A stretch of 64,000 bases of DNA from Nitrosopumilus sp. GTDB lineage: Archaea > Thermoproteota > Nitrososphaeria > Nitrososphaerales > Nitrosopumilaceae. The first letter of the stretch is position 1, and the number at the start of each line of letters is the position of its first letter. The notes beneath the pieces were generated by a model, which saw nothing but the letters and a program-made list of their open reading frames with translations, searched no databases and had not been told where the DNA came from. The translations under genes and the position numbers were made by a program. The stretch lies in assembly GCA_963667665.2 (NCBI GenBank), contig OY763927.2:288001-352000 (forward strand), given 5' to 3'. This document shows positions 40,551 through 57,693 of this stretch, in pieces.

Positions 40551-42371
40551 TTGTCAAAAATTGTTACTGATACTAGTGTTATAATTAATGGTCAACTAAT
40601 TGCACAAATAGAAGCAGGTTCAATTAAAAATTCTGAAATTATTATCCCTCAAGCAGTTTTTGATGAATTGCAATCTCAAGCATCAAGTAAAAAGGAACAG
40701 GGTTTTGTAGGATTGGAGAAAATTAAAAAACTTAAAGATTTGTCTGGGAGTTATGGTTTGAATATTGTTTTGAAGGGATCACATCCTTCTACTGATGATA
40801 TTAGACTTGCAAACAGCGGTAGAATTGATGCTCTTATCACTGATATGGCTAAACAAAATGATGCTGTTCTTTACACATCGGATCGTGTTCAACATCTAGT
40901 TGCACAAGCTGAAGATGTAGAAACAGTATTTCTCAAAGTTGTTATTAAAAATGAAACATTAGAATTTCTGAAATTCTTTGATGCTGAGACAATGAGTGTT
41001 CATCTGAAAGAAAACCAACATCCTTTAGCAAAAAAAGGAAAACCTGGAAATTTTTTATTAACTACCCTTAGTGATGAAATTCTCTCTAAAGACTATTTGG
41101 AGTTAATTTCATCACAAATCTTGAATATTGCGCATGCATCTGATTCAAGTCATATTGAGATCTCAAAGACTGGTGCATCAGTAATTCAACATGGTGACTA
41201 CAGAATAGCAATCACTCATCCTCCTTTTTCTGAATCATTTGAAATAACCATTGTTCATCCCATCGTAAAGTTATCCCTTGAAGATTATGATATTTCAGAA
41301 GAGTTGATGCAACGTTTCACTGATAGAGCAGAAGGAATTGTGATTTCTGGTGCTCCAGGTTCTGGGAAAAGTACTCTTGCATCAGGATTAGCAAATTTTT
41401 ATTATAATAAAGGAAAAATTGTTAAAACATTTGAATCCCCACGTGATTTACAAGTTGATTCTGGAGTTACTCAGTATGGTAAATTAGATGGAAGTTTTGA
41501 TAACAGTGCTGACATTTTGTTACTTGTACGTCCAGATTATACTATTTTTGATGAAGTAAGGAGGCAAGAAGATTTTAGAACCTTTGCTGATTTACGATTA
41601 ACTGGTGTGGGTATGGTTGGGGTAGTTCATGGAAATTCTCCTATAGATGCAATTCAACGTTTTATTGGCAAGATTGAACTTGGTATAATTCCAAGTGTCT
41701 TAGATACTGTAGTCTTTGTAAAAGATGGTGTTATTGAAAAAGTTCTTGACTTGGAATTAAAAGTAAAAGTACCTTCTGGAATGACTGAATCTGATCTTGC
41801 AAGACCTGTAATTGAAATCCGGAATTTTGTAGATAATGTATTAGAGCATGAAATTTACACATTTGGAGAAGAAAATGTAATTGTTCCTATTGCAAAAAGA
41901 ATTCAAAAAGTTGGAATTGAAAAGCTTGCTGAAGATAAAGTAAGAGAAACTTTCAAAAGATATGATCCTAATGCAGAAGTTGAAATTTTATCTGCTAATA
42001 GAGTTAAGGTACTAGTAGATGAGCAGTGCATTGCATCCATTATAGGAAAAGGAGGCTCAAATATTAGTGAAATTGAAAAATTTCTCAAAGTCCATATTGA
42101 TGTAGTTCAAAAGGATTCTAACCATTCATCTGCAATGATAAGTGATCTGCCTTTTACTTATTCTGAATCAAAAACTGCTCTGCTTCTAACTGTTGATAGA
42201 GAATACACTTCAATGCATGCTGATATTTCTGTTAATAATGAATATGTTACATCCGTAAGAATTGGTAAAAAAGGGCAGATAAAAATTCCAAAACGTTCTG
42301 ATGCTGCAAGAAATCTTTTGAATTTTGCATCATCACAAAACGATATTCAAATATCTATCAAAGATTTTTAA
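40551..42371 (+). CDS. PIN-domain ATPase with KH domain (PINA type)
   Basis: DTSV PIN domain, GAPGSGKST, ESPRDL, DEVR and IIGKGG KH motif. Confidence 0.9.
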   Translation: MSKIVTDTSVIINGQLIAQIEAGSIKNSEIIIPQAVFDELQSQASSKKEQGFVGLEKIKKLKDLSGSYGLNIVLKGSHPSTDDIRLANSGRIDALITDMAKQNDAVLYTSDRVQHLVAQAEDVETVFLKVVIKNETLEFLKFFDAETMSVHLKENQHPLAKKGKPGNFLLTTLSDEILSKDYLELISSQILNIAHASDSSHIEISKTGASVIQHGDYRIAITHPPFSESFEITIVHPIVKLSLEDYDISEELMQRFTDRAEGIVISGAPGSGKSTLASGLANFYYNKGKIVKTFESPRDLQVDSGVTQYGKLDGSFDNSADILLLVRPDYTIFDEVRRQEDFRTFADLRLTGVGMVGVVHGNSPIDAIQRFIGKIELGIIPSVLDTVVFVKDGVIEKVLDLELKVKVPSGMTESDLARPVIEIRNFVDNVLEHEIYTFGEENVIVPIAKRIQKVGIEKLAEDKVRETFKRYDPNAEVEILSANRVKVLVDEQCIASIIGKGGSNISEIEKFLKVHIDVVQKDSNHSSAMISDLPFTYSESKTALLLTVDREYTSMHADISVNNEYVTSVRIGKKGQIKIPKRSDAARNLLNFASSQNDIQISIKDF

Positions 42372-42822
42372 AATTTTCAATTACCTTTGGATTTGCTTTA
42401 AGAAAAGTAATGAATTTTCTTAACTGCTTTATTGTTTTTGGATTAAGATGGTGTTCAATTCCTTCGGTGTCTTGATTTGCAGTATCATATCCAACTCCTA
42501 AGATTTCAAAAAATTCTAATAAGATTCCATGTTTTTGTCTAATTCCCTCAGCTATTTGTATTCCTTTATCTGTAAGATTAATTCCATGATATTTTTCATA
42601 TTCTAAAAACCCATTCTCGTCTAGTCTTTGAAGCATCTTAGTAACACTAGGTGCACTTACATCCATGTATCTTGAAATGTCTAGTGTAGTTGCATAACCT
42701 TTCAATTCGACTAGTTCTGATATTATTTCCAAATAATCCTCCATTCTTGTACTTGATTGGGTTCTCTCTGATTGATGAGCAGCTTTAATGGAATCCAATC
42801 TTTTGGAATTTTTAGGTTTCAT
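42358..42822 (-). CDS. DtxR/MntR-family metal-dependent regulator
   Basis: MEDYLE, VSAPSVTKML and EGIEHH motifs. Confidence 0.92.
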   Translation of the reverse strand: MKPKNSKRLDSIKAAHQSERTQSSTRMEDYLEIISELVELKGYATTLDISRYMDVSAPSVTKMLQRLDENGFLEYEKYHGINLTDKGIQIAEGIRQKHGILLEFFEILGVGYDTANQDTEGIEHHLNPKTIKQLRKFITFLKANPKVIENFKNL

Positions 42823-42956
42823 GTAATCTTTGTATCTAAATCAAATCTAGTATAATTGGATTCTCTTCTGTTGATTTTAGTTACTCTTTGTTGACTTGGA
42901 TGTTACAGTAATTGATCTTTGAATCTTAACTAACTTCTTCTAAATCATAGGCTGGA

Positions 42957-43307
42957 ATGGTTGATCCCTTAAAGGTACGACTTGAAAAATTACAAAAATC
43001 TGCTGAATCAGCTAAACGCAGAGCAAATTTGTACACAGATGTGGCTAAAATGAATGAAGGACCTAATACTAGTTCGTTAGGTGCTCTTCAGAAAGCTTCT
43101 GCACCTGGTAAAAAACTTCAAAAAATTGGATTTTTGATGTTATGGGTTCCTGAACCTACTGGTGTTACTTGTGCAGTAGGCGCTCCGTTGATAGTTGCAG
43201 GTAGATATCTTGACAAAAAATACAATGGTGCCACTATTCATGATATTGGTCATGAGACAAAACATGCCTTTACATCAATACGTGATTTTAAGAATTTTAT
43301 AATATAA
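42957..43307 (+). CDS. Hypothetical protein
   Basis: 116-aa ORF with PEPTG hydrophobic hairpin. Confidence 0.7.
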   Translation: MVDPLKVRLEKLQKSAESAKRRANLYTDVAKMNEGPNTSSLGALQKASAPGKKLQKIGFLMLWVPEPTGVTCAVGAPLIVAGRYLDKKYNGATIHDIGHETKHAFTSIRDFKNFII

Positions 43308-43417
43308 CACTATTAGTTTTTAAAATATCTATTACAGACTTTTCATTCCTACTACTGCCCTAAAGCAGGGTAATAGATAGGGTAATAAGAAAAAATTTGT
43401 TTTTAGTCATGGCGGTA

Positions 43418-43506
43418 TAGCTCTATCCGTGCCTAGCTTTTGAGCTATTGTAGAGCTACATTTGTAATTCTAGTCGTGGAATGTAGAGCTACAATGGAGC
43501 TACATA
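43418..43506. repeat. Cluster of short GAGCTA/TAGCT repeats
   Basis: TGTAGAGCTACA at 43449 and 43482 plus several partial copies in both orientations. Confidence 0.6.
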
Positions 43507-43665
43507 GTGCCCTACTAATCCCTGCTAAACAAAAAGGCAGAGATGTATGCACTGTCAAATATCTATTAAAAAAATAACAGTGCGTAGCTTTTCTGTTATA
43601 GTATAGAGGTAGGAATTAGTAGAGATTAGAATTATCTAAAATACTGGATTGCATTAAAGAAAATT

Positions 43666-45213
43666 ATGAAACCTGTAATAATTATCACAATAGCGTTTGT
43701 TTTGTTAATTCCACTATCTGCTTTTTCAGATATATTTGGTGAACCAACGTTAAAGGTTAAAGATCTAGTTGTTGAAAAATATGTGTCAAATTTGTGTTGC
43801 ATGATTACTACCATGACTTTTGTTGAAGATGATATTTTATTTTTACAAAAAACTGATGGAGTGGTTCGTTTAATTCGAGATGGAGTTTTACAAGATAAAC
43901 CTGTACTTGATGTAAGTGTTGATTCAATTGGAGAAAAAGGCATGTTGGGAATTACCAGTGTTGATTCATCAGTATATCTCTATTTTACAGAAGCAGAAAA
44001 GGACGGAGGTGAATCATTAGGAAATAAAATTTACAAATATGAATGGGATGGGGATTCTTTGTTAAATCCAGTATTACTAAAAGAACTTCCTTCAAATGTT
44101 TCTCATAATGGGGGAGCAATGGTTACAGGATTGGATAATCAAGTCTATGCAGTAATTGGAGATACATTACACTATGGTCTTCTTCAAAACAAGCCTATAG
44201 AATGGTTGAAAGGAGACGATATTGATTTTAAAGATAATGGAGTAATTTTACAATTAGAAACAGAAAAACCATATTTTGCTATGGGAATTCGAAATAGTTT
44301 TGGATTAGCAATTGATCCTGTTACTGGGAATTTATGGGCAACTGAAAACGGTGATGATGATTTTGATGAAATCAATTTGATTCCAGAGAAGTTTAACAGT
44401 GGATGGATAGTCATAATGGGACCTGCAACTGAATCAGAACTTGCTAGCCTTCCAGGTTATGAAGATTATGTTTATGGTGATCCGGAATTTACTTGGGAAG
44501 CAGTTGTCGCACCAACTGGATTAGATTTTGCAAAATTTCAAGAAACCAATGCTTATGATAATTCTCTTTTTGTAGGAGACTGTAATACTGGGAATCTTTA
44601 CAAATTTGAATTAAATGAAAATAGAGATGGTTTTGAATTTACTAGCCCATTTCTTCAAGATAATGTAATTAACTTTGATGAAAATATGGATGAAATTATC
44701 ATAGGTACTGGATTTGGGTGTATCACTGATATTGAACGAGGACCGGATGGTTTTCTTTATGTAGTATCATTAAGTGAAAGTACAATTTTTAGAATTCTTC
44801 CTACTGCAAGTGCATCTAATGTAATAGACTCGAATGGAGGAGGTTGCCTAATTGCTACTGCAACATATGGTTCAGAATTATCACCACAAATACAACAACT
44901 CAGAGAACTACGAGATAATTCATTACTAAACACAGAATCAGGAACTGCATTCATGGAATCATTTAACGAATTTTACTATTCATTTAGCCCATACATTGCA
45001 GATTTAGAGCGTGAAAATCCCGTATTCAAAGAGATAGTAAAGATTGCAATTACACCAATGATTTCATCTCTATCAATTTTGAATTATGTGAATATGGATT
45101 CAGAAGAATCAGTATTAGGATATGGAATTTCTTTGATTATACTTAATGGATTGATGTATGCTGGTATTCCTGCAAGTGTGATTGTTGTGATTAGGAATAG
45201 AAATAAGATATGA
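43666..45213 (+). CDS. PQQ-dependent sugar dehydrogenase (GSDH) with CFI-box-CTERM domain
   Basis: HNGG, GIRNSFGLA, ENG..DEIN; C-terminal GGCLIATATYGS...YYSFSP plus TM. Confidence 0.9.
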   Translation: MKPVIIITIAFVLLIPLSAFSDIFGEPTLKVKDLVVEKYVSNLCCMITTMTFVEDDILFLQKTDGVVRLIRDGVLQDKPVLDVSVDSIGEKGMLGITSVDSSVYLYFTEAEKDGGESLGNKIYKYEWDGDSLLNPVLLKELPSNVSHNGGAMVTGLDNQVYAVIGDTLHYGLLQNKPIEWLKGDDIDFKDNGVILQLETEKPYFAMGIRNSFGLAIDPVTGNLWATENGDDDFDEINLIPEKFNSGWIVIMGPATESELASLPGYEDYVYGDPEFTWEAVVAPTGLDFAKFQETNAYDNSLFVGDCNTGNLYKFELNENRDGFEFTSPFLQDNVINFDENMDEIIIGTGFGCITDIERGPDGFLYVVSLSESTIFRILPTASASNVIDSNGGGCLIATATYGSELSPQIQQLRELRDNSLLNTESGTAFMESFNEFYYSFSPYIADLERENPVFKEIVKIAITPMISSLSILNYVNMDSEESVLGYGISLIILNGLMYAGIPASVIVVIRNRNKI

Positions 45214-45229
45214 AAATCATCCATATTCA

Positions 45230-45421
45230 TTGAACGCTACTAGAGATAAAGTTAACATCAGAATAATGGTTCAGATAATACAAAAACAAGATCAGCGTAC
45301 AGGAAAATTAACTGAAGGAATTGTCAAGAGGATTCTCACTTCAAGTAATTTTCATCCTCATGGGATTAAAGTTGAATTAGAGAATGGGAAAATAGGCCGT
45401 ATTCAAAACATAGTAGAATAG
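45230..45421 (+). CDS. YwbE/DUF2196 family protein
   Basis: KQDQRTGKLTEG...ILT..HPHGIKV.L..G.IGR. Confidence 0.88.
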   Translation: MNATRDKVNIRIMVQIIQKQDQRTGKLTEGIVKRILTSSNFHPHGIKVELENGKIGRIQNIVE

Positions 45422-45475
45422 TCTTGTTAATTTGACATTTGGGATTTGCAATTCTAGATTTGAATAATCTATATT

Positions 45476-45511
45476 GGATTTTGTAATTCTATGTGATTAA
45501 TTGGGCTCAAA
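45476..45511 (+). repeat. Island boundary motif, copy 1
   Basis: GGATTTTGTAATTCT-ATGTGATTAATTGGGCTCAAA. Confidence 0.7.
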
Positions 45512-45515
45512 TTCA

Positions 45516-46271
45516 TTAATCATTTTTTACTTCGATTTTATTTTTATTAAATTTGTTGTATCCATCTTTGTTGTATCCCTCTTTGTTGTAACCTATGTGA
45601 TCATATCCAAGTCTATCATACCCCTCTTTGTTATACCCAATACTATCATATCCATCTAAGTCATACCCAATACTATCATATCCATCTAAGTCATACCCAT
45701 TACTGTCATATCCAAGTCTATCATATCCGTCTTTGTTATACCCGTCTTTGTTGTATCCGTTTTTGTTATGCCCATCTAGGTCATACCCGTCTTTGTTGTA
45801 ACCCTTTTTGTTGTATCCATTACTATCATACCCATTTTTGTTGTAACCCTTTTTGTTGTATCCATCTTTGTTGTAACCCTTTTTGTTATACCCGTCTTTA
45901 TCAAAATTTATTTTTGTATCAATGTGAATTCCATCAAGATAAAAACCATGATTATCATACCCATTTTTGTCATACCCCTTTTTGTTGTATCCATTTTTGT
46001 TGTAACCCTTTTTGTCATACCCCTTTTTGTTGTATCCATCTAGGTCATACCCATTTTTGTTGTATCCATTTTTGTTATACTCCTCTTTGTTATACCCGTC
46101 TTTATCATACCCATCTTTGTTGTAACCCTTTTTGTTGTATCCATCTTTGTTGTACCCATCTTTGTTGTAACCCTTTTTGTTATACCCGTCTTTATCATAC
46201 CCATTACAATCATACCCATCTTTGTCGTATCCAAACTTGTCAAATTTTTTAAATTTATCAAATAATCCCAT
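45516..46271 (-). CDS. Pentapeptide GY[DN]xx repeat protein
   Basis: Dozens of GYNKK/GYDKD/GYDLD units encoded by 15-bp repeats; likely start MGLFDK at 46271. Confidence 0.8.
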   Translation of the reverse strand: MGLFDKFKKFDKFGYDKDGYDCNGYDKDGYNKKGYNKDGYNKDGYNKKGYNKDGYDKDGYNKEEYNKNGYNKNGYDLDGYNKKGYDKKGYNKNGYNKKGYDKNGYDNHGFYLDGIHIDTKINFDKDGYNKKGYNKDGYNKKGYNKNGYDSNGYNKKGYNKDGYDLDGHNKNGYNKDGYNKDGYDRLGYDSNGYDLDGYDSIGYDLDGYDSIGYNKEGYDRLGYDHIGYNKEGYNKDGYNKFNKNKIEVKND

Positions 46272-46327
46272 ATTATTTTCATAAATTGCTAGCAAATAAA
46301 ACCGATCATGTAATTTTGTATTATGCT

Positions 46328-46427
46328 CTAAAGCGTGTATGCCCAACCTTCTTGGTCGCAAAATTCTTTATAGTAAATTTCTCCTAAAGAACCTCTTGAG
46401 TTTGTTTGTGATTCTAGGTGTAACCAA
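46328..46427 (-). pseudogene. Truncated, frameshifted gene remnant, possibly a PD-(D/E)xK nuclease N-terminus
   Basis: MVTPRITNKLK / GSLGEIYYKEFCDQEGWAY read across a 1-nt shift. Confidence 0.4.
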
Positions 46428-46456
46428 GGATATACTATACTCACTCCATAGATTCA

Positions 46457-46490
46457 GGATTTTGTAATCCTCATGTGATTAATTGAGCTT
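46457..46490 (+). repeat. Island boundary motif, copy 2
   Basis: GGATTTTGTAATCCTC-ATGTGATTAATTGAGCTT. Confidence 0.7.
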
Positions 46491-46551
46491 GCTAAATCAT
46501 GGGTAATTTCACACCTATTTTCATAAATATTATGAATTTCCCACATTAGGA

Positions 46552-47223
46552 ATGAGTCTATGTAATGATCCTAAATGTCCTCTAAATAGACAGGGAGTTA
46601 CTCATGAAATTCACGAATTAATTGAAAATCGACCAGTGAAAAATCCATGCAATGATCCTCGATGTGCAATGAATAGAATGGGAATGAGTCATGAGATACA
46701 TGATGGAAAACAAGTTAATGATAGTGAACCTATACAAGAAAAAACATCAAAACAATATGTTGTAGATGATGAAGATACAGAATCAACTAATGAAACTTTA
46801 CAAGAATTAGGTAAACGGGTTTACAGAGATAATCCAAATAAAATATCTAGAGAAAAAATACTTGCAGAGCGAAGAAAAAGAGGAAGACAAAAAATAGAAC
46901 AAGAAGCTCAAGAAGTCAATAGAAGACAAAAGATTAAAGAAAAAACATCTACAAAATCTGAAACGGTTTCACAAACAAGAAACAAAAAAGAAATTCCATC
47001 AGTTAATCAAATTTTACATTGCAATGATCCATATTTGACATTTAACTTGACACAAGATACAACGTGTGATGAAATTAAATCAACATACAGAATACTAAGT
47101 AAAAATTACAATGCATCTCGTGGAAGTGCTAATAGATCACAAGATGAACAAGAACGACTCACCAAGACACAAAGTAAAATAAACATTGCATATGACATCT
47201 TAAGAAAAAAACATTGTGGTTGA
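46552..47223 (+). CDS. Atypical J-domain protein lacking HPD, with two N-terminal C2H2-like repeats
   Basis: DPY..F....EIKSTYR.LSKNY-NAS...KINIAYDIL; CNDPxC...HEIH twice. Confidence 0.75.
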   Translation: MSLCNDPKCPLNRQGVTHEIHELIENRPVKNPCNDPRCAMNRMGMSHEIHDGKQVNDSEPIQEKTSKQYVVDDEDTESTNETLQELGKRVYRDNPNKISREKILAERRKRGRQKIEQEAQEVNRRQKIKEKTSTKSETVSQTRNKKEIPSVNQILHCNDPYLTFNLTQDTTCDEIKSTYRILSKNYNASRGSANRSQDEQERLTKTQSKINIAYDILRKKHCG

Positions 47224-49285
47224 TATGGTAGTTTTAGGAATTGATTTAGGTACTAATAGTTCTGCAGCAGCTGCAATGATTGATGGTAAAGTACAACTCA
47301 TTTCATTTTCTGATAAAAACTCTACAGATGTAAAGCCATTTTATTCTGTTGTCTCTTTTTTTGAAGATGGCAGTTGCCTCATTGGAAAGCCAGCACTGGA
47401 GCAAGCATCATACAATCCAAAAGGAACTGTGTTTAATGTCAAAAGAATGATGGGAACCGGAGAACCCATTCATGTTTTAAAGAAAAGCTATCTTCCACAA
47501 TTTATCTCAGCATTACTAATTATGGAAATGAAGATTAAAGCAGAGAAACTTTTGAATGAAACTATCACAAAGGCAGTCATTACAGTTCCAGCATATTTTA
47601 ACGATAATCAGCGTCAAGCAACGAGAGATGCTGGAAAAATCGCAGGTTTGAACGTAATTCAGGTGTTAAATGAGCCTGTCGCTGCATCAATTGCCTATGG
47701 TCTAAACAGACTAGAAGAGCCCACAAAAATTCTAGTATTTGACATGGGGGCTGGAACTTTGGATGTATCAATTTTAGAAGTTGATAATAATTTCTTTGAG
47801 GTATTATGTACTACAGGAGATACAAATCTTGGTGGAATTAATGCCGATGAAATTATTTCAGAGATGATTTTAGAAGAAATTAAAAAAATAAAACCAAATG
47901 AAACAATTGATGAACTCTCAAAGTTACAGATAATGCAGTTAGCTGAATCAATTAAAATCAGATTATCTGAAAATACAGAACTTGATTTTGTTGAAGATAT
48001 TGCATTAACTGATTCGCATATTGATTTACCAATATCAATTAGTAGAGAAAAGTTTGATTCTATGATAGAATCAATTTTAGATAAATGCAAAGTATGCATA
48101 TCTGATGCGCTAAAAGGTGCAAATCTTACTTCAGATAAAATAGATAAAGTAGTGTTAGTTGGAGGATCAGTTAAAATTCCTGCCATTAAAAAAATGGTTT
48201 CAGAATTTATTCGAGAACCAGAATCAAACATTGATTCTACATTTACTGTTGCATCAGGTGCTGCAATTCAAGGTGCAGTGTTGTCTGATGATCGAAATTT
48301 GCCTGTGATTTTTCAGAATTTAGTACTATTAAACAAAACACCATTAGATTTAGGGGAGCATGCCATAAAAAAAAGACAGGAATTTATACAATTAATGATT
48401 CCAAAGAATACTACTTATCCAACTGAATTCACTGAAGTATTTTATGTAAATAAAATTATGCAAACTGAAGTCTCAATTAGTGTTTGGCAAGGAGATTTTG
48501 AAAAGAATCCAGATTTTCCAGGTAATGTAAACATTGGACAATTTTGGTTACGTGGTTTACGTGAAGGAATAGAAAAAGAGATTGAAGTTACATACAAAAT
48601 TGATGCAGATGGAATAATTTCAGTTACTGCATATGAGATAGAAGGAAATGCCCATGATGAATTAACCATAGATAAAATGGGAAATTCAGTAATTTCACCA
48701 CCTGAACTTGAATTTGCGCACGAAGAAATCGAGAAAATTGAGAAAAAGCACAAACGGGACATTATGAGTCCATATGAAACTCCAGTTGATGATTATGAAT
48801 TTGCATCACCAAAAGTATCTGAAGAATACACCAAGGATTATGGATGGGTTTGCAATTGTTTGGCAAAAGCAATAGAGATTATCAAAACACATCATAACCA
48901 TCCAGAATATCATCCGGATTTTTTCAAGACTGCAAGATTTGAGATATATCTACAATTAGACATGCAGTATGCTTATGCATATATTCAATTGACAGGTGGA
49001 CCTGTTTACCCAATTCACATTCATAATGCTCTAAAAGAGAATTCAGAGCAAAATAATAGAATTTTGGTAGTAACATTAGTTCATGAATTACTTCATGCAA
49101 TACATCCTGATTGGGGACATAATAAAATACGTCCAGCTGAAAGAAGGCTAGCAAACTTGGCAATGTACTTTGATGCATACAGAGAGATGGAAATTAAATT
49201 TCTCAGTGGAAAAATGTCTTTGTGTAATAATACTATGACGCGAAGAGACCAAAAAGTTAGAATTCAATGCAAGAGTGAAGACTAG
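47216..49285 (+). CDS. Divergent Hsp70 fused to a C-terminal zincin-like (HExxH) domain
   Basis: GIDLGT, TVPAYFNDNQRQAT, NEPVAA, DMGAGTLD, LVGG and IDADGI motifs; then TLVHELLHAIHPDWGH. Confidence 0.88.
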   Translation: MVDMVVLGIDLGTNSSAAAAMIDGKVQLISFSDKNSTDVKPFYSVVSFFEDGSCLIGKPALEQASYNPKGTVFNVKRMMGTGEPIHVLKKSYLPQFISALLIMEMKIKAEKLLNETITKAVITVPAYFNDNQRQATRDAGKIAGLNVIQVLNEPVAASIAYGLNRLEEPTKILVFDMGAGTLDVSILEVDNNFFEVLCTTGDTNLGGINADEIISEMILEEIKKIKPNETIDELSKLQIMQLAESIKIRLSENTELDFVEDIALTDSHIDLPISISREKFDSMIESILDKCKVCISDALKGANLTSDKIDKVVLVGGSVKIPAIKKMVSEFIREPESNIDSTFTVASGAAIQGAVLSDDRNLPVIFQNLVLLNKTPLDLGEHAIKKRQEFIQLMIPKNTTYPTEFTEVFYVNKIMQTEVSISVWQGDFEKNPDFPGNVNIGQFWLRGLREGIEKEIEVTYKIDADGIISVTAYEIEGNAHDELTIDKMGNSVISPPELEFAHEEIEKIEKKHKRDIMSPYETPVDDYEFASPKVSEEYTKDYGWVCNCLAKAIEIIKTHHNHPEYHPDFFKTARFEIYLQLDMQYAYAYIQLTGGPVYPIHIHNALKENSEQNNRILVVTLVHELLHAIHPDWGHNKIRPAERRLANLAMYFDAYREMEIKFLSGKMSLCNNTMTRRDQKVRIQCKSED

Positions 49286-49287
49286 AA

Positions 49288-49911
49288 TTGAGTGGAGAAT
49301 ATCTAATTGAAATTAGAATTAGAGGAGATATTAGAGATTTATGTAAAAAATTAATCTATGATATTTTTTATAAATTTCGTGTTTCTAATGTAGCAAGTAA
49401 AAGACCAGTTCCACATATTTCATTGTTTGGTCCATTTGATTGCAAATCAATTAAACCAGTAATTCATGAAATAAAAAAAACAGGAAAAAATTATACAAAA
49501 TTAGAATACAAAGTAAGTGGCTTTGATTATTTTGAATTAAAGAAAAAATTTCTATTCATTACTACATCTACAAAGAAAAATGTACTCTATCTCAAAATTG
49601 AAGCAAGCGAAGATCTTAAAGAATTCAGACATTCATTATCTAAAAAATTACTAAAAATTACAAAATCAGTAAATATTGATAATGATTCTAAAGAAGACTT
49701 CAAATTTCATGCAACTATTGCCATGAGGGATATTGATAGAAAATTTGACCGAATATGGGATTATCTCAAAAAATACAAAATTCACAAAAATGGAACATCA
49801 TATAGAATTACTTTGCTTAGAAAAGGGAGAATTGTGTGTGAATATGACCTGTATGAGCAGAGATTTTTGAAAAGAACTCAAGCATTAAGGCGTAAACCCA
49901 GAAGGAGATAA
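49288..49911 (+). CDS. 2H phosphoesterase (2'-5' RNA ligase-like)
   Basis: Two HxS/T motifs: PHISL and FHATI. Confidence 0.82.
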   Translation: MSGEYLIEIRIRGDIRDLCKKLIYDIFYKFRVSNVASKRPVPHISLFGPFDCKSIKPVIHEIKKTGKNYTKLEYKVSGFDYFELKKKFLFITTSTKKNVLYLKIEASEDLKEFRHSLSKKLLKITKSVNIDNDSKEDFKFHATIAMRDIDRKFDRIWDYLKKYKIHKNGTSYRITLLRKGRIVCEYDLYEQRFLKRTQALRRKPRRR

Positions 49912-49961
49912 TATTTGAAAAACAAAGGAAATCTTAAGTTCATACAAAATTCTAATTAATT

Positions 49962-50207
49962 GTGAGGCATCGTCGAAGACGAAATTATGGAAGTCGTAGA
50001 AGTTCTGGAAAAAGTTTGAAGATTTGGATTAAATTAATAATTGCAGGAATCATACTTTTCTTTGTAGGAGTTTTTTACATTACAGCAACAGGTGGTCCTA
50101 CAATTGCATCACCTGGCATGATAATTAGTCTCATTGGAGTTATTCTTGTAGTAGTAGGAGTATTATCTGGAATTGCGCGTGGCTTTAATCGAATGATGAG
50201 TGAATGA
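49962..50207 (+). CDS. Small two-TM membrane protein
   Basis: Basic N-terminus and two hydrophobic helices; ATGA overlap with the HNH gene. Confidence 0.7.
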   Translation: MRHRRRRNYGSRRSSGKSLKIWIKLIIAGIILFFVGVFYITATGGPTIASPGMIISLIGVILVVVGVLSGIARGFNRMMSE

Positions 50208-51131
50208 CTTCAGAATTTAATAGATTTTTCTCATCAAAAACTCTAGCTAGTACATACAAACCAACATTTGTAAAATGTCTTTTAGATTTAGGAGATTTTC
50301 AAAAAGATGAAGGCGAACAATGGGTAAAAAAACATGAAGATTATCTTACAGTTGATCTAAATTTCATAGCAGTAAGATTTCTTAGATATTATCATCCTTT
50401 AAAATTCAAGTTTAAATTAAAACAAGAGGCAACAGCAAAAAGAATTGTCATATATAGAATTTTAGAAGATTTTAAAGAACTTGTAGGAATAAAGACTGCT
50501 CCATCAAAGAAGACATTATGTTCAGAACATTTTTCTGAAATGCGACAAATAACAATCAAAGAGGGAATCAAACCACAAGTTCTCAAGAAATTATTAAACG
50601 ATTGTAATATCTATTCTATAAACAAAGGCTCCAACAGTATTGAGATTAAAACAGATGTTGTAAAGTTCATGAAAGAAAACAAAAAAGTTCTTGAATCTGC
50701 ATTAAATCACATGATTGCAAAATATTTAGAAAATTGTAATGCATCCCCAAATATCTCTACTGCATTAGAAGAAATTATTCCAAGAAAAAAACTTAGTGTA
50801 CCGATATTTGATACAATAATTGATTTGCAATCTTCTCGATGTTTTTATTGTAACCAGAAATTTGATAGAAAAGAGTTTGCACAAGAACATTTCATCCCTT
50901 GGAATTTCATCAGACAAACAGAACCTTACAACATCATTGCAGCGTGTACCCCCTTGTAATTCTAGTGAAAATGATCGATTGGCCAGTGAAAAATACCTTG
51001 AAAACATCATTAAACGAAACAAGACTCTGGAGAAACTCCCTATGGGGTATTCTGAAGAGTTCATGAGAAACATGTATGGTATGTGTAGAATAGAATATCA
51101 CGGAATTAGTGAGAAACTATGGGAACTGTAA
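50204..51131 (+). pseudogene. HNH endonuclease split by an extra C in a C5 run
   Basis: STYK N-terminal motif, CFYC, EHFIPW and NIIAAC-TP-CNSS restored by removing one C at 50949-50953. Confidence 0.8.
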
Positions 51132-51448
51132 ATCACAATAAAGCAATCAGAGACAAAATTCCTGAAATAATCCGAGAATCCGGAAAAGAATGTAATGTAA
51201 AGACATTATCAGATGAAGAATTTTTGGAGAAATTAGAAGCAAAACTACATGAAGAAGTTTCTGAATACCAAGAAAGTAAATCTCTTGAGGAATTGGCAGA
51301 TATTTTAGAAGTAATTAACAGAATTTTAGAAATTAAAGGAATTCCAAAAAAGAAACTAGAAGAGATTAGAATAATGAAAAAAGATGAGCGTGGTGGCTTT
51401 GAGGAGAATTTGTTTTTAATTGATACTGAAGAAAAGAAAAAGGGATGA
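51119..51448 (+). CDS. MazG-like nucleoside triphosphate pyrophosphohydrolase
   Basis: NKAIRDKIPEII, KLHEEVSE, EELADILEV and K..ERGGF motifs. Confidence 0.9.
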   Translation: MGTVNHNKAIRDKIPEIIRESGKECNVKTLSDEEFLEKLEAKLHEEVSEYQESKSLEELADILEVINRILEIKGIPKKKLEEIRIMKKDERGGFEENLFLIDTEEKKKG

Positions 51449-52434
51449 AACCATACCATACATTCAAGAGTATTTCGCACATAGTTTATCAAGAAATTAA
51501 AGATTTTATCCAATTAAATTACAAAATTCAGATTTCTGCAAAAACTTCACCAGGCCTTGAAGAATCTTTTGACATTTTATCAGAGTCTATCAAAGTTCAT
51601 TACTATAAGAAAGGAAAATTACTTTTTCAATCAAGCCCAACAAACAAAACATATGCAAATTTGGTTTCTGATATTAATAAAAAATTTTCATTAAATACAT
51701 TTGATGAAATAGAAGAAAAACCAACTGAAATTCCTTCTGATGTAAAATATTACATCGGTTGTGATGAGTCTGGTGCTGGAGAAACCTTTGGATCAATGTT
51801 TCTAGGGTGTGTTATAGTTGATGCTGATAATTTAAAAAATATTCAACAAATTTTTGATATCCAAAATATCAAGATACTTGAAGAGCATGAAATACTTGAA
51901 AAATATGATGCAATCAAAAAGTACTGTAAAATTTTTGAAAAAAAATGTGATGCATCAGAAATTGATGAAACAAGCAAAAACACGCTTCTTGATCGAAAAT
52001 ACAAAGAATTGATAAATGATGCAATTTCGGGAAAAGAAAATGTATGTGTAATAATTGATGACTATGGAATTCAAAGAGAGTTAAAATTATTTTTGGATAA
52101 CCTTCGTTCTCAAGGAAATACAGTAATTATAGAACACAAGGCTGATGAAAAATATGCAGTATGTCAAGCTGCTTCAGTAGTTGCAAGAAAAGAAAGATTT
52201 GAAGAAATGAGAAATATCAATAAAGAATTTAGTGTGCAAGATGAAACAGGGGAAAAAATTTATCCAGGATCTGGTAATGCTGGAAACCCACAAACTGCAC
52301 AATATTTAGAAGCATTCATGAATCTATATCCCGGTAAAGAACTTCCAACTTTTGTAAGAAAGAAATGGAGTAATGCAAAAAAAATATTGAAAGAAAAATC
52401 TAATCAGAAAATTTCAAGATTTTTTAAAGAATAA
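51445..52434 (+). CDS. Ribonuclease HII/HIII family protein with TBP-like N-terminal domain and PIP box
   Basis: YKKGKLLFQ, IGCDESG.GE.FG, IDD, KADEKY..QAASVVAR and GSG motifs; C-terminal QKISRFF. Confidence 0.85.
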   Translation: MKPYHTFKSISHIVYQEIKDFIQLNYKIQISAKTSPGLEESFDILSESIKVHYYKKGKLLFQSSPTNKTYANLVSDINKKFSLNTFDEIEEKPTEIPSDVKYYIGCDESGAGETFGSMFLGCVIVDADNLKNIQQIFDIQNIKILEEHEILEKYDAIKKYCKIFEKKCDASEIDETSKNTLLDRKYKELINDAISGKENVCVIIDDYGIQRELKLFLDNLRSQGNTVIIEHKADEKYAVCQAASVVARKERFEEMRNINKEFSVQDETGEKIYPGSGNAGNPQTAQYLEAFMNLYPGKELPTFVRKKWSNAKKILKEKSNQKISRFFKE

Positions 52435-52451
52435 CTCTTTTGTTCTTTCAG

Positions 52452-52472
52452 ATGTGATTAATTGGGCTCAAA
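52452..52472 (+). repeat. Island boundary motif, copy 3
   Basis: ATGTGATTAATTGGGCTCAAA, identical to 45491-45511. Confidence 0.75.
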
Positions 52473-52532
52473 AACATGGATGTTAAAAGAAATCTTAAGT
52501 TCATATAAAATTTAGAATAAAGATGAGAAATA

Positions 52533-54743
52533 ATGTCTGAACAACTAGAAAAAATTTTTACATTTCCAGATGAATTTCCACCAATAACTACAGGATTATT
52601 ACTCGATGATGGGATAATTATTACAGGTCATTATAATGGATTTGTAGTAAAATGGAAAATTGGCTCAACGAAATATGATATACTTCATGATTGTGGCGAT
52701 AAAGTAGAAACTCTATCTAAATCTCCTACAAACCAAATTTTAGTTGGTTGTAATTCGGGGTTTCTATTCCATTTTGATCTTAATAATCCTACAGATAAAA
52801 TTATAATTCAAAAAGGAACAAATACAATATCATCTCGTATTTGGAGATCTGTATGGCCAACTGATGACACAATTCTAACAACTTCTACTTACGGTGGATT
52901 AAATTTATTCAATAAAACAGATTCAAAATGGAATAATGAATTATTATCAGGTCATTATCATAGCATTTTTGGAATTACTAATAAAAATGATAGATATGTT
53001 GTTTCAGGTGATTATAAAGGAAAAATAATAATTTGGGAAAAACATGATGATGGTTACAAATCTATTGATGAAGTAAATATTCAAGGCTCTGTAGAAGATA
53101 TTTCATGGATTAAAGAAGAGTCTTTTTCAGCAATTGATAATCTTGGCCACATCAATATTTTTGAATTAGATTCTACATCTGGATTATGGAAATCAATTGT
53201 TGGAGCTGATGTAGCTACTAGTAGAGGACATTGCATACATGTTATTAACAATGGAAAAACAGTTTTTGCTGGTACTGATACCGAGCTTATTCAATTTGAT
53301 CTTGATTCCCAACAAATTCAAACAAGTAATTTAGAAAAAATTAGAAAAATTTTTTCAGAAGGCAATCGAGTTTATGTACTTTCTGTAATTGGACTCTACT
53401 CATTTGAACCAAATAAAATACAAGTGCCTGTTGAACTTGTCAAATATCAATATGCTAAAGTTAGCCTCATTGGTCACACAGGAGTAGGTAAAAGTACATT
53501 ATGCAGTTCTATTGTTACTGGTTCAACGGATAATGTCAAATCTACTTTTGGAAAAAAGATTTGGACATGGAACTTACCCGATAACAATGATGGACCTGAA
53601 CAAAGAATAATTTTTCATGATCATGGTGGTCAAGAGACAGTTCTGGGTACATTTCTCCCGTTTCTCTCAGATTCAAATATAATTTTGGTATTTTTCAAAC
53701 AAACAGATAAAACTACATTTGATAAAGCCTATGAAATTATTAACGAATTAAAATCAATAGTTACCAAAAAATCTAAAATTTATCTTGTCCAGACACACAT
53801 CGATGAAGAGATTATCGATGTTGATGAAAGCCATATAGCTCAACTTATTGAATTAGGAGAAATTGTCAATTGCTTCAAAATATCACCAAAAACGGGTGAA
53901 GGAGTAGAAGAATTTTTGAAACAATTACAGAATGAAATTGACTGGTTGGAATCTAAAACGATGGCGCAATCTGAATATGTAGAAGGTCTCATGAAAACTA
54001 TCACCGATTTATCCATATTCGATGGTACAGTTGTAAGCTTTAATTCTGTAAAAAACTCTTTTCAAGAAAAAACATCTTTGAATATAACTACTGGTCATTT
54101 GAATTTTCTTTTAACTAACTTTAGTAATCAAGGATTTATTGAATATTATCCTGATGTTTTGAAATCAGTAATTTTCAATAATGATGAGTATAATAAACTA
54201 CGAAGTAATGTACCGATTTTGGTAGATCAGGCAAATGGAATTATTTCAATAAAAGAAATTGAATCTGTCTTCAAACCTTCAACGTACTTGCAGATCTTAG
54301 ATAATGTTTATTTGAGTTATTCTATTGCGATAAAAGATAACGATGTACGAATTTTTCCTGATAAACTTAAAACTGAAGGAAGTACTGTTAAGAAACCTTA
54401 TGAAGATTTTTTGAAAAAACCTAGTCATCAATTCGAGTATCTCTTTCCATTACAAAAAATAAAATTGTATAATCTAATTGGACCCTTAATTGAATTAAAA
54501 TTAAAATGCATTGATGCGTCTAAGTTTGATGGATTATTCGCCTGGGAAACAAATGCTTGTCTTTATTACTCAATTGGAGAAGTAGGTAATTCAATTACTG
54601 GAAGAAATTCTAAGATATCTTATTTTATAGGGGGAACTGATAAAAAAATTTGTGATAGACTAAACAATGAATTTTCATCTATATTGATGCGTCTCTTTGG
54701 TCATAACATTTCTCAAGACACACAAACTAGTACATTAAACTAA
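52533..54743 (+). CDS. WD40 beta-propeller + Roc GTPase + COR-like protein (ROCO family)
   Basis: WD-like repeats (GH...VSGDYKGKIIIW); G1 GHTGVGKS, G2 STFG, G3 DHGGQE, G4 THID, G5 SPK; COR-like QGFIEYY...VIF. Confidence 0.85.
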   Translation: MSEQLEKIFTFPDEFPPITTGLLLDDGIIITGHYNGFVVKWKIGSTKYDILHDCGDKVETLSKSPTNQILVGCNSGFLFHFDLNNPTDKIIIQKGTNTISSRIWRSVWPTDDTILTTSTYGGLNLFNKTDSKWNNELLSGHYHSIFGITNKNDRYVVSGDYKGKIIIWEKHDDGYKSIDEVNIQGSVEDISWIKEESFSAIDNLGHINIFELDSTSGLWKSIVGADVATSRGHCIHVINNGKTVFAGTDTELIQFDLDSQQIQTSNLEKIRKIFSEGNRVYVLSVIGLYSFEPNKIQVPVELVKYQYAKVSLIGHTGVGKSTLCSSIVTGSTDNVKSTFGKKIWTWNLPDNNDGPEQRIIFHDHGGQETVLGTFLPFLSDSNIILVFFKQTDKTTFDKAYEIINELKSIVTKKSKIYLVQTHIDEEIIDVDESHIAQLIELGEIVNCFKISPKTGEGVEEFLKQLQNEIDWLESKTMAQSEYVEGLMKTITDLSIFDGTVVSFNSVKNSFQEKTSLNITTGHLNFLLTNFSNQGFIEYYPDVLKSVIFNNDEYNKLRSNVPILVDQANGIISIKEIESVFKPSTYLQILDNVYLSYSIAIKDNDVRIFPDKLKTEGSTVKKPYEDFLKKPSHQFEYLFPLQKIKLYNLIGPLIELKLKCIDASKFDGLFAWETNACLYYSIGEVGNSITGRNSKISYFIGGTDKKICDRLNNEFSSILMRLFGHNISQDTQTSTLN

Positions 54744-54745
54744 AA

Positions 54746-55162
54746 ATGTTTGAATTTGATGTTGCACTTTCATTTGCAGGTGAGCAAAGAGTTTATGTTG
54801 AAAAAGTTGCATATTTTTTGCAAAACAAAGGACTCACTGTGTTTTATGATAAGTTTCATCAATCTCATCTGTGGGGTAAAGATTTATCGATATATCTTCA
54901 TGATGTTTTTTCTAACAAATCAAAATTTTGTATAATGTTTATTTCTAAAGAGTATATTGAAAAAGCTTGGCCTAGTCATGAAAGAGAAGCAGCGCTTCAA
55001 AAGCAAGTTGAAGTTGGAGGCGGTTATATTCTACCAGTGCGATTTGATGATACAGTGGTTCCTGGTCTTCCTGACAGTATCTCATATATTGATGCAAATA
55101 CCTACACCCCAGAAAATATTGCCAAAATGTTTTTAGAAAAATATGAGAATAAAAATACATAA
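54746..55162 (+). CDS. TIR domain protein
   Basis: FDVALSFAGE, VFYD, FISKEY, WPSHE (catalytic Glu position) and ILPV motifs. Confidence 0.92.
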   Translation: MFEFDVALSFAGEQRVYVEKVAYFLQNKGLTVFYDKFHQSHLWGKDLSIYLHDVFSNKSKFCIMFISKEYIEKAWPSHEREAALQKQVEVGGGYILPVRFDDTVVPGLPDSISYIDANTYTPENIAKMFLEKYENKNT

Positions 55163-55191
55163 TTTTCAATCATTATAATCAAATATCTTTA

Positions 55192-56400
55192 CTAACGAAT
55201 AATTTCCAAAATTTTCTCAGGTGGAATTTGCCCATAACTTTTTTTTAATTCATCAATGGTATGCCATTCTCCAACTTCTGCAATAATTCCATAGTTGTAG
55301 TTAGTTTTGGATAACCAGTAATGAGCACCAATATGCCTGAGTACGTGCGTAGAATGACTGAGAAAATAGTTAGTGTTTTTCCCCAAATGTTTGTAGATTT
55401 GAATTAATTTTTTTCTTATATCTATTTGAAATGCATATCTTGATTCATTTGATTCATAAATTTTATTGCAGCCTCTTGCACGAAGTAAATCAATACTTTG
55501 TTGTGTTTCTTTTTTTGTGATGTACTTTGTCCATTTTCCTCCTCTAATGTGTGATGTCTTTGATTCAATCGCAGACATAACATAGATTATTTTTTCACGG
55601 TTGTTGTATGTGGTATAGTCATTTGTCATTGTATATAGTGCACCAAATCTTGCACAAGATTCTATTCCAATCCAGAACCATCTGTAAATATCAGAATCAA
55701 TTCCCCATCTTTCTTTGATAAATGAATCAGCTTGCTCTAGTTCTGTAGTTGTTAGTCTAATGTCTGCATACAGTCCATGTGATAATACTTTTTGTGACAT
55801 TATTCCCCCAACTCCTTTTCTCCATGTAATGTTGTAAAATCCACAAAAGTCTCTTACTGCTTGTACTCTGGTATATACAACCCACTTTATTCCGTTAGGT
55901 CTGTTTCCTCTGGGATCTCTTGTATCTTTTTTTTGTGAACATAGTTGTGCAAAACTTCGCATAATTTTTTCAGTATTTCTTTGAGAGACTAACAAATCTG
56001 ATGGATGAATTGAACACGTATTGCATACTGATTCTAGTGAACGTAGACGAACTTTCCAGTTTCTTAGTGGTTCGACTCCCTTTCGAGTTATCAGATCATC
56101 TATCCATTCGGCAACTAGTATCTCTGATGTTATTGGATGATCTTTGTTGAATTGACGGAACTTTTTCTCTGATGGAATCTTTGGTAGAATGAATCTTCCT
56201 GTGTTAGTTTTCTCTAACTTCATTCTTTTCATATAGTTGTAGACTGTTTTTCTACACACTCCGAGCATCTTTGCTACCTCTGTCATTGGTATGGGATATG
56301 GTCTGGAACCTGTACCGTGAACCATATCTGATATCTCTGTAATTATCTGAGATTCAGATGCTCTCTTGCCGTGCAGGCGCATTCTGGGAACAAACTTCAC
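55192..56400 (-). CDS. Tyrosine recombinase/integrase with N-terminal HTH
   Basis: EVAKMLGVCRKTVYNY HTH; catalytic R (SCAR), HVLRH, W and Y (KSYG). Confidence 0.82.
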   Translation of the reverse strand: MKFVPRMRLHGKRASESQIITEISDMVHGTGSRPYPIPMTEVAKMLGVCRKTVYNYMKRMKLEKTNTGRFILPKIPSEKKFRQFNKDHPITSEILVAEWIDDLITRKGVEPLRNWKVRLRSLESVCNTCSIHPSDLLVSQRNTEKIMRSFAQLCSQKKDTRDPRGNRPNGIKWVVYTRVQAVRDFCGFYNITWRKGVGGIMSQKVLSHGLYADIRLTTTELEQADSFIKERWGIDSDIYRWFWIGIESCARFGALYTMTNDYTTYNNREKIIYVMSAIESKTSHIRGGKWTKYITKKETQQSIDLLRARGCNKIYESNESRYAFQIDIRKKLIQIYKHLGKNTNYFLSHSTHVLRHIGAHYWLSKTNYNYGIIAEVGEWHTIDELKKSYGQIPPEKILEIIR

Positions 56401-56527
56401 CTACTTACACCTCAGGCCAAGCCTCGAATTTTTTTTAGAAATTACTTTGTGTGTGCTATTTTCTAGAACCAACGAAAGTTAGTACCCAAATTAACGTATT
56501 TTAAAAGGACTTGAGATAAATTAACTT

Positions 56528-57019
56528 ATGACTACTAGAACCCAGGTAATCCTTCCTATTTTCATTGCAGCTGTAATAGTTGGAGTTGTTGGTTTGGCTA
56601 CTCTTCCAAGTGATATTAAATTAGAATCTGTTGAATTTCCTGTGGGCATCATCAAAGTTGATGATGTTCCTCTTCAAGTACAGATTGCTGATACTGAACC
56701 TAGACGCGTTCGTGGATTAATGTTTCAAGATCAACTTCCTTTAGATCAGGGAATGATCTTTGTGTTTCAACAATCTGGTCTTCATTCTCTATGGATGCTT
56801 AACATGCAATTCTCTCTTGATATGATTTGGTTTGATCAAGACGGAAAAGTTGTGCATATTGAAAAAGATGTTCCACCATGTAAAAATGCATTAGAAATTA
56901 TAACCTGTCAAAGTATTATTCCTGAAGGTGAATCAGTTTATGTTCTTGAGGTTACTTCAGGATTTGTTGAAGAAAATAACATTACAAAAGATTCAATTTT
57001 GAGTATTATCTCCATTTAG
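56528..57019 (+). CDS. DUF192 family protein
   Basis: IADT..RR.RGLMF, GMIFVF, WM.NM.F.LD and YVLE motifs. Confidence 0.92.
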   Translation: MTTRTQVILPIFIAAVIVGVVGLATLPSDIKLESVEFPVGIIKVDDVPLQVQIADTEPRRVRGLMFQDQLPLDQGMIFVFQQSGLHSLWMLNMQFSLDMIWFDQDGKVVHIEKDVPPCKNALEIITCQSIIPEGESVYVLEVTSGFVEENNITKDSILSIISI

Positions 57020-57060
57020 AATTGCAAAAACTTATCATAGAATGATAAAATCTGTATTTT

Positions 57061-57693
57061 ATGAACAAGTTGATTTTAATTTTCGTTATTGTTGGTATTG
57101 CAGTAATAATTTCTGCCTCATTGCTTTTAATTTCTGAAAACCCATCAGTTCCTCAATCAAAACCAATCTATGAAGTGGGTTTTACTTTTAATGATGTTGA
57201 CAAAATTAAAAAATCTCTGTCAACACAAAAAATTTTCATGTCTTCTCCAATCGAAATCACTGATCATACTATAGGTAAATATTGTCCCTCCTTTGCCGAT
57301 ATTCAAAACCCCATTAATCATTGTGCTACTACTGTTATCACAGACATTAATGGAAACTCTCTCGGAAATATCAACATGGGTGGAACTACTGATGGCCCAA
57401 TTATGGCATTAGCCATTATTGACTCATCTCCATTTTTAGATTCAAAACAAGATACAGTTAACTATGTTTTTCAAACAATGATTGAAACCTTGGTGTGTGA
57501 TTGCTGGGAAGAAAAACAGCCTGGAGGCTTTGAATCAGTTAGTGCATGGCTAGATGTTGCTGCAGAAAAATATGCTGAATCTCCTCAAAGTACACTCACA
57601 TCAAAAATTGAAGGCCTAGAAAATATGAAAGTGATTTTGAAGATAAAATCTACAAATGAAAATTATCTATGGACATTAATTGTACTCAAGTAA
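57061..57693 (+). CDS. Membrane-anchored hypothetical protein
   Basis: N-terminal TM; 210-aa ORF. Confidence 0.75.
   Translation: MNKLILIFVIVGIAVIISASLLLISENPSVPQSKPIYEVGFTFNDVDKIKKSLSTQKIFMSSPIEITDHTIGKYCPSFADIQNPINHCATTVITDINGNSLGNINMGGTTDGPIMALAIIDSSPFLDSKQDTVNYVFQTMIETLVCDCWEEKQPGGFESVSAWLDVAAEKYAESPQSTLTSKIEGLENMKVILKIKSTNENYLWTLIVLK

Follow-up and report, generated by a model that had tools for sequence, protein, structure and literature searches.

The DNA analyzed here is a stretch of 64,000 nucleotides (nt) from Nitrosopumilus sp. (hereafter the window; positions 288,001-352,000 of the forward strand of contig OY763927.2, assembly GCA_963667665.2), and it carries a gene for an Hsp70 protein in which the usual C-terminal helical lid is replaced by a predicted zincin-type metallopeptidase domain, preceded directly by a gene for a J-like protein. 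We propose, with about even confidence, that the core of this locus is a mobile two-gene machine consisting of the J-like adaptor and the Hsp70 with a small zinc endopeptidase in place of its lid; judging from its sequence and predicted structure, the fusion looks like a previously undescribed chaperone-driven protease. The original prediction, made from the letters of the window, had described a three-gene module that also included a downstream 2H phosphoesterase, and had read it as a chaperone-gated protease insulated from the host DnaK/DnaJ system; its observations are confirmed by our analysis, and its interpretation is supported in part. Hsp70s are among the best-studied proteins, yet we came across no account of one that has an enzyme in the lid position: literature searches covering the main part of articles recovered no paper on an Hsp70 with a peptidase replacing the lid, or on this adaptor family, in line with the earlier statement that no described system is known to have this architecture.

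Organization of the locus

The list of open reading frames (ORFs) bears out the reported layout of three genes, with an 8-nt overlap between the J-like and Hsp70 ORFs and a gap of 2 nt between the Hsp70 and 2H ORFs (Table 1); use of an alternative in-frame ATG at codon 4 of the Hsp70 ORF would replace the overlap with a 1-nt gap. All the motifs quoted earlier are present in the translations, namely GIDLGTNS, FDMGAGTLD, QNLVLLNKTP and VHELLHAIHPDWGH in the Hsp70, and two CNDPxC...HEIH repeats together with YNASRG at the position of the J-domain HPD in the J-like protein. As the fusion protein is represented by at least 100 clusters, and the ratio of nonsynonymous to synonymous substitution rates (dN/dS, throughout against two orthologous loci) is about 0.02-0.25 for the folded parts, the three ORFs are genes under selection and not chance frames.

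For comparison, small profiles built from the compared sequences were run over eight genome loci, 57 metagenome loci, many of them short, and the window (compared loci are labeled L and compared genomes G). The Hsp70-protease was found in 33 loci, of which 32 have at least 150 nt upstream and can be evaluated for a partner gene. Family-wide counts refer to 301 family genomes and DNA comparisons within the genus to 40 other genomes; the compared loci are phylogenetically related, so that all counts overstate independence.

Table 1. Coordinates of the features of the locus, as positions in the window
Feature	Position	Strand	Basis
Insertion of 13.2 kb carrying the module	43326..56498	.	Flanks abut in other genomes
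J-like adaptor protein, 223 aa	46552..47223	+	ORF list, Pfam, family profile
Two CNDPxC-x8-H-x2-H putative zinc-knuckle repeats, adaptor N-terminus	46552..46722	+	Motif read
J-like domain, residues ~150-223, NAS-RG replacing HPD	46999..47220	+	Pfam, family profile
Hsp70-protease ORF, 689 aa, GTG start	47216..49285	+	ORF list
Hsp70 nucleotide-binding domain, residues 1-375	47216..48340	+	Pfam/NCBIfam, alignment with the genome's own DnaK
Linker and beta-sandwich substrate-binding domain, residues 376-500	48341..48715	+	Pfam to residue 513
Predicted zincin (minigluzincin-like) metallopeptidase domain in place of the helical lid	48836..49282	+	HELLH at 49082-49096
2H phosphoesterase, 207 aa, optional accessory	49288..49911	+	PF13563, 6.9e-15; motifs read
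43-nt element	49924..49966, repeated at 52485-52527	+	Family D5, 79% identity
402-aa helix-turn-helix (HTH) protein, right end of the island	55192..56400	-	Pfam HTH_17 only, 9.2e-6

A divergent Hsp70 with a conserved ATPase and peptide clamp

The Pfam HSP70 family (PF00012) matches residues ~1-513 of the fusion protein (1.8e-121; 406.7 bits against a cut-off of 20.6), and the DnaK of the same genome aligns with 41% identity over residues 6-507, with no similarity beyond. Among 20 aligned homologs, K76, E153, D176, G178-T181 and D183 are invariant and D10, G12 and T13 are at least 90% conserved, residues which we take to serve the catalytic functions of the ATPase; the dN/dS is 0.11 for the ATPase domain and 0.10-0.11 for the beta-sandwich clamp. 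By its sequence, the protein is thus an Hsp70 that keeps the predicted ATP-hydrolysis residues and the beta-sandwich peptide clamp. The C-terminal helical lid is lacking, the Pfam match ending at position 522 of the 599 of the model.

The NCBIfam DnaK equivalogs are not reached (402 against 648 bits for NF001413 and 400 against 823 bits for TIGR02350), and the host genome, of 1.89 Mb, has a canonical DnaK (713 bits) elsewhere with a DnaJ gene beside it, which identifies the window Hsp70 as a second, divergent copy; besides that DnaJ, three further J-domain proteins of the genome score above the cut-off. With the canonical DnaK-DnaJ-GrpE system the window pair shares the ATPase and beta-sandwich domains and the adjacency of a J-type partner, but it differs from it in its missing lid, its sub-cut-off DnaK score, its status as an accessory island gene, a partner that usually lacks HPD, and a module without an exchange-factor gene. 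The Hsp70-peptidase architecture is not mentioned in the available text of an account of the DnaK system in Archaea (PMC3564930).

A zincin in place of the lid

No Pfam family matches residues 511-689 even at E = 10, a profile of the domain retrieved only chance matches among PDB sequences, no PHROG family matches it, and none of the viral contigs encodes it by the pattern used; the ESM Atlas offered look-alikes at 0.90-0.91 only, without usable names. The structure predicted from an alignment of 54 sequences (predicted local distance difference test 89.9, predicted template modeling score 0.85) consists of a long helix, three strands, the HELLH-bearing helix and two more helices, and residues 541-689 model as a zincin fold, with its helix, mixed sheet, active-site helix and downstream helix. 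HELLH (residues 623-627) lies within a predicted helix spanning residues 611-629 (101-119 of the domain model). The earlier placement of a zincin in the lid position therefore holds in the model; its likening to SprT/WLM peptidases stands only as to the zincin fold, for the minigluzincins are the nearest solved fold in the structure comparison, SprT/WLM ranks lower as second-best, and the domain falls outside the SprT (PF10263) and WLM family profiles. On the evidence of this model, the C-terminal domain is a zincin closest to minigluzincins, and its structural neighbors also include HtpX, Ste24 and BepA.

The sequence HELLHA[IVL]HPDW.H, including the catalytic glutamate, is invariant in 33/33 Hsp70-fused sequences, as are E642 and C670 in the 32 sequences long enough to cover both. 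H630 and E642, the latter in the next helix, are candidates for the third zinc ligand, each at least 90% conserved. With a dN/dS of 0.02-0.05, the domain is under stronger constraint than any other part of the fusion protein. The archaeal minigluzincins (selecase, proabylysin, projannalysin) resemble it in fold, but have no detectable sequence relation to it (14-19% identity in structural alignments); as distinct from them, the window domain forms part of an Hsp70 fusion, shows one more conserved histidine (HExxHxxH) as well as a conserved C-terminal cysteine, and belongs to a family of its own. Wss1 and SPRTN (WLM and SprT zincins), which work with Cdc48/p97, have the same broad zincin fold and likewise are partnered with an ATP-driven remodeler, and relatives of the window domain are fused to CDC48 N-domains. 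In the available text of PMC4559962, Wss1 is called minigluzincin-like and a cysteine switch is described for it, an idea applicable to both; by analogy, the conserved C670, close to the C-terminus, may hold the peptidase in a latent state.

A constant J-like partner with a variable N-terminus

Pfam DnaJ (PF00226) matches the C-terminus of the window adaptor with 21.9 bits (1.9e-4), under the cut-off of 27.8; relatives score above it (92 bits in L012, 60.6 bits in L062), and all 40 of the 40 PDB matches to a profile of the J-like family are J-domain chains (best 1.2e-9), so that J-domain homology holds. A J-like ORF on the same strand lies directly upstream of the Hsp70-protease in 32/32 evaluable loci, which include near-duplicates and correspond to roughly 27 distinct ones. 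The adaptor gene is thus always present beside the Hsp70-protease, and its N-terminus is variable. In the window and in L009, L010, L012 and L013 the adaptors have conserved CNDPxC...H..H knuckles (dN/dS 0.08-0.16), which the spacing of the cysteines and histidines suggests to bind metal; this module occurs in 10 family genomes. Many other adaptors have two membrane spans as called by a simple, crude hydropathy scan, and we take that of the window to be soluble; those of L104 and L108 match the CAP profile, and one has a CarboxypepD_reg domain.

The window protein lacks HPD, as had been read from it, with NAS and then an inserted RG in its place, and 28 of the 32 partners have NAS, NAT, NSS, NLS, NLT, DPS, HPS or similar at this position. 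A universal loss of HPD, as seen in 17/17 of the first loci compared, was rejected when the metagenome loci were found to include partners with HPD. At the Hsp70 position that we take to be equivalent to R167 in the numbering of E. coli DnaK, the 33 sequences have R (22), Q (9) or H (2); each Hsp70 with Q or H has an HPD-less partner, and each partner with HPD has an Hsp70 with R, a pattern that is consistent but, the loci being related, not a statistic. Two observations weigh against a strictly private pair and weaken the insulation from DnaK/DnaJ that had originally been inferred: HPD is canonical in 4/32 partners (two distinct sequences), and lone HPD-less J proteins of the CNDP type occur in four genomes (G259, G287, G110 and G089), in which no Hsp70-protease was found.

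The knuckles and the kinship with Wss1/SPRTN could also be read as a repair system, in which a zinc-knuckle adaptor would recruit the protease to DNA- or RNA-crosslinked proteins, with RNA ends being tidied by the 2H enzyme. However, no scan found a nucleic-acid-binding domain, most adaptors lack knuckles and many are membrane proteins, and conserved repair genes are absent from the vicinity, which makes this explanation very improbable.

Relatives of the peptidase domain

An exhaustive search of 1.84 billion representatives yielded 46 relatives of the domain. All 38 domain loci from reference genomes belong to Nitrososphaerota; the domain occurs in 26 of the 301 family genomes, and frames of the size of the fusion in six. 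We regard it as a new zincin family restricted to ammonia-oxidizing archaea. A Pfam scan covering 32 of the 46 representatives showed fusions to zf-AN1 (8), CDC48_N/CDC48_2 (3), TPR (2), Hsp70 (2) and SHOCT (1), with no Pfam domain in the other 16; three of the 32 have weak matches to peptidase families (M48, M91, M78). The fusions to Hsp70, the Cdc48 N-domain, the AN1 finger and TPR echo eukaryotic Wss1/SPRTN-p97 and ZFAND biology.

Nitrosotalea-type genomes have an AN1-fused copy of ~200-270 aa as a syntenic chromosomal gene, in a neighborhood conserved in at least 19 loci that includes genes for an NDH-2-like protein, a flavodoxin-like reductase, an alcohol dehydrogenase and a universal stress protein. 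Among 27 genome copies without Hsp70, 22 have HQLLH and one HHLLH, indicating that the catalytic glutamate is kept specifically where an ATPase is attached; by this substitution the syntenic AN1 copies are probably not proteases. The persistence of the three histidines and the C-terminal cysteine in copies that have lost the glutamate points to a conserved non-catalytic role of the fold, from which it might be supposed that the domain of the fusion, too, is a non-catalytic metal-binding lid or interaction module on a specialized Hsp70. We consider this extremely improbable in view of the retention of the glutamate in every Hsp70-fused copy and the constraint on the domain.

Another explanation is that the pair is an accessory quality-control or stress module that removes misfolded or mislocalized proteins, its membrane adaptors directing it to membrane or secretory clients, and that it is carried by the island for stress tolerance rather than immunity. 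Such a role would fit the CDC48, AN1 and TPR fusions, the stress- and redox-type neighbors of the AN1 copy, the likeness to HtpX, Ste24 and BepA, the TPR genes that flank the pair in L084, L086, L097 and L108, and the CDC48 gene found upstream in L012 and also at the start of L013. Moreover, thaumarchaeal integrated elements carry stress-response genes according to the available text of PMC6563490, the main text of which does not contain the words DnaK, DnaJ or chaperone. Stress or quality control remains a strong rival because of these fusions and of the stress genes on thaumarchaeal mobile elements. We nevertheless judge it unlikely on balance, as the distribution is very patchy (the six genomes above), the genome already has DnaK-DnaJ, the syntenic AN1 copies lack the glutamate, and diversifying, often receptor-like adaptors with frequent conflict-type neighbors fit sensing better.

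The 2H gene as an optional accessory

The product of the third gene matches 2_5_RNA_ligase2 (PF13563; 6.9e-15, 55.8 bits against a cut-off of 27) and has both 2H motifs intact (PHISL and FHATI, for HxS and HxT); its dN/dS of 0.25-0.30 indicates purifying selection. Nevertheless, the claim of a three-gene module fails in other loci. The expected co-occurrence was borne out for the J-like gene and the Hsp70-protease but not for 2H, which is found in 3/33 Hsp70-protease loci (the window, L014 and L103), and directly downstream in only 2/18 of those in which the sequence continues downstream for 1.5 kb or more. A DNA match in G329 (80% identity) spans the J-like gene and the Hsp70 gene, going no further than the stop codon of the latter. 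The 2H family is present in 26 family genomes, mostly at a distance from the pair, with a second copy in the host genome; the close homologs of the window gene (57-65% identity) lie, in four of five inspected loci, directly after a gene for a zinc-ribbon/membrane/CAP-domain protein.

CAP genes flank the pair in L097 and L102, and in L014 the order is CAP, J-like, Hsp70-protease and a 2H-metallophosphatase fusion, with two more 2H fusions nearby. In G201, an operon joins zf-AN1, a 78-aa ORF, CAP, 2H and a CNDP-type J protein with HPD. In our reading, 2H and CAP belong to one functional neighborhood as optional accessories, and 2H lies outside the core. A further model is that of an immune system for which all three genes are required: the protease would recognize a target of viral origin, while the substrate of the 2H enzyme would be a 2',3'-cyclic or 2'-5' nucleotide signal or an RNA end. 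This would be in keeping with the tight coupling of the genes in the window, the recurrence of 2H near the pair in L014 (three copies) and L103, the G201 operon and the TIR gene 5 kb downstream of the module. We hold it to be improbable given the 30/33 loci without 2H (16/18 with enough downstream sequence), the boundary in G329, the location of the closest homologs after CAP genes, and the lack of a PADLOC match for the J-like and 2H proteins.

Among the 2H fusions of L014 are a 797-aa protein (12332-14725) with an N-terminal 2H domain and two AAA+ (Cdc48-like) ATPase domains, and a neighbor of 394 aa combining 2H with a calcineurin-like phosphoesterase. A recurrent pair in L062-L065 (G201, G003, G244) consists of a zinc-ribbon, membrane-spanning CAP protein followed within 10 nt by 2H, and adjoins ABC-3C components, ThiF/DUF6791/DUF6527 genes or an integrase.

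The genomic island and its other genes

With a 20-kb DNA query, the match to 42001-43325 of the window abuts that to 56499-57700 in at least 18 of the 40 other same-genus genomes (those with the empty site include G183, G229, G254, G291, G303, G312, G315, G323, G324 and G328), which identifies 43326-56498 as an insertion. No tRNA was found in the window, no Rfam family in 42-58 kb, and no direct repeat flanking the island among the repeats listed. The HTH protein at its right end has a homolog in G195 at the same chromosomal site; it has no PDB sequence match and is not significantly similar to any of four Phage_integrase proteins from related loci, and we suspect, but cannot confirm, that it is a recombinase. 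The non-coding left end (43400-43520) contains three close copies of a GTAGAGCTACA-like word, which could be binding sites for a recombinase or regulator.

The left part of the island comprises a GSDH-like gene, a DUF2196 gene and a gene for a Gly-Tyr repeat protein, followed by the three module genes. The repeat protein is encoded by a 281-aa ORF (45516-46361, minus strand) made almost entirely of five-residue G-Y-[ND]-K-x units, with 22 in-register copies at a spacing of 15 nt (family D1), and matches no Pfam or PHROG family. Both copies of the 43-nt element (Table 1) sit immediately upstream of a start codon and are probably the promoter or leader of the transcription unit that follows; their position before two downstream start codons suggests that the unit formed by the three genes ends at 49911 and is followed by separate units. 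A 17-nt word, ATGTGATTAATTGGGCT, which extends to 26 nt in two of its copies, is found at three places (45491-45516, 46473-46489 and 52452-52477), always in intergenic regions or at gene ends of the island and once 63 nt upstream of the J-like start, and may be a shared regulatory site.

After the module come genes for a small membrane protein and an HNH-like protein, and then a 109-aa ORF with an RNase HII-like gene. The HNH-like ORF (50204-51131, plus strand; 251 aa, weak HNH and PtuB matches) shares 4 nt with the 81-aa membrane ORF before it and ends inside the nuclease motif; a 103-aa ORF in another frame (50820-51131) has a CN..N-like continuation of that motif, and the two together look like a frameshifted gene. 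The 109-aa ORF appears all-helical, belongs to no family and overlaps the RNase gene by 4 nt (51119-52434, plus strand); the RNase HII/HIII-like protein has 329 aa, with an N-terminal extension of ~100 aa, and four same-genus genomes have copies of its gene at other sites. The right part, besides the HTH gene, encodes a 736-aa WD40 beta-propeller/Roc-type GTPase protein and, 2 nt further, a TIR protein of 138 aa (52533-55162, plus strand) that matches PADLOC PDC-S66 (9.6e-17); these two are likely a separate two-gene conflict module within the island. We rejected the view of the whole island as one GTPase-centered system like that of PMC7159879, as none of the other island genes was seen again near the pair across the eight genome loci covered by this check.

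As to the originally suspected link to defense, the locus does lie in an inserted island with TIR and other conflict-type genes; PADLOC-DB 2.0, however, has no match for the J-like or 2H proteins and only a weak one for the Hsp70 (PDC-M61B, E 0.0022). By PADLOC or Pfam, defense-type neighbors occur in the window (TIR), L010, L012/L013, L015, L101, L112 and L117, as a raw tally, and integrases in L015, L108 and L112; L009 has none. Two further atypical chaperone gene sets lie near the pair. In L016 (10793-16158, also in L110), 2.3 kb downstream of the Hsp70-protease, a second cassette encodes an 839-aa Hsp70, matched by Pfam in its ATPase part only, a 584-aa protein with an N-terminus J-like in appearance but without a Pfam match, and an AAA+ ATPase. 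In L086 (426-5197), upstream of the Hsp70-protease, there are a 458-aa J protein and a 453-aa fusion of an Hsp70 ATPase to a J domain, according to Pfam.

Proposed mechanism and role

We envisage that the adaptor, whether soluble with two knuckles as in the window or, as in many relatives, spanning the membrane twice and in some cases bearing a CAP ectodomain, would select a client or sense a signal. Its J-like domain would then trigger ATP hydrolysis by the Hsp70, the clamp would grip an extended segment of the client, and the peptidase, tethered at the position from which the lid normally closes, would cut the clamped chain, with the C-terminal cysteine perhaps imposing latency until then. 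FtsH, an AAA+ ATPase fused to an HExxH zinc protease, offers an analogy for this logic in that a polypeptide-gripping ATPase would be covalently joined to a zinc endopeptidase; unlike in FtsH, the motor would be an Hsp70 clamp and not a ring translocase, which would make single cuts likelier than processive degradation.

Dedicated Hsp70/J pairs such as E. coli HscC with DjlB/DjlC, and the Hsp70s of conflict systems, likewise comprise a second Hsp70 with its own adjacent, often membrane-anchored J-type partner. In the available texts, HSP70, GrpE and DnaJ-fused proteins are found in predicted conflict systems centered on GTPases (GAP1-N2; PMC7159879) and Hsp70-like units, the CnuD of CoCoNuT, are fused to McrBC parts (PMC11090510); these place Hsp70 homologs in mobile conflict loci, but describe no lid-position peptidase, archaeal system or member of this adaptor family. 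Given the location in an island, the patchiness, the diversifying adaptors and the neighbors, we lean toward regulated proteolysis in a conflict or defense setting as the role of the pair, in preference to stress or quality control, with a confidence slightly short of even.

More tentatively, and with the doubt outweighing the expectation, we suggest that the fusion may be the first known protease driven by an Hsp70, and with it the first of a new class of ATP-dependent proteolytic machines. In these, the clamp would present a selected chain to a built-in, latent zinc endopeptidase, and J-like adaptors, exchangeable and in some cases resembling transmembrane receptors, would translate a signal from inside the cell or from its envelope, virus attack for example, into a single decisive cleavage. 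If the peptidase does cut the chain held by the clamp, the fusion would connect the Hsp70 cycle physically and directly to proteolysis, and would provide a compact, testable model for the transfer of clients from J-type adaptors to an effector. The locus would also be an archaeal addition to a recurring theme, that of putative private Hsp70/J-like pairs in mobile, defense-rich DNA.

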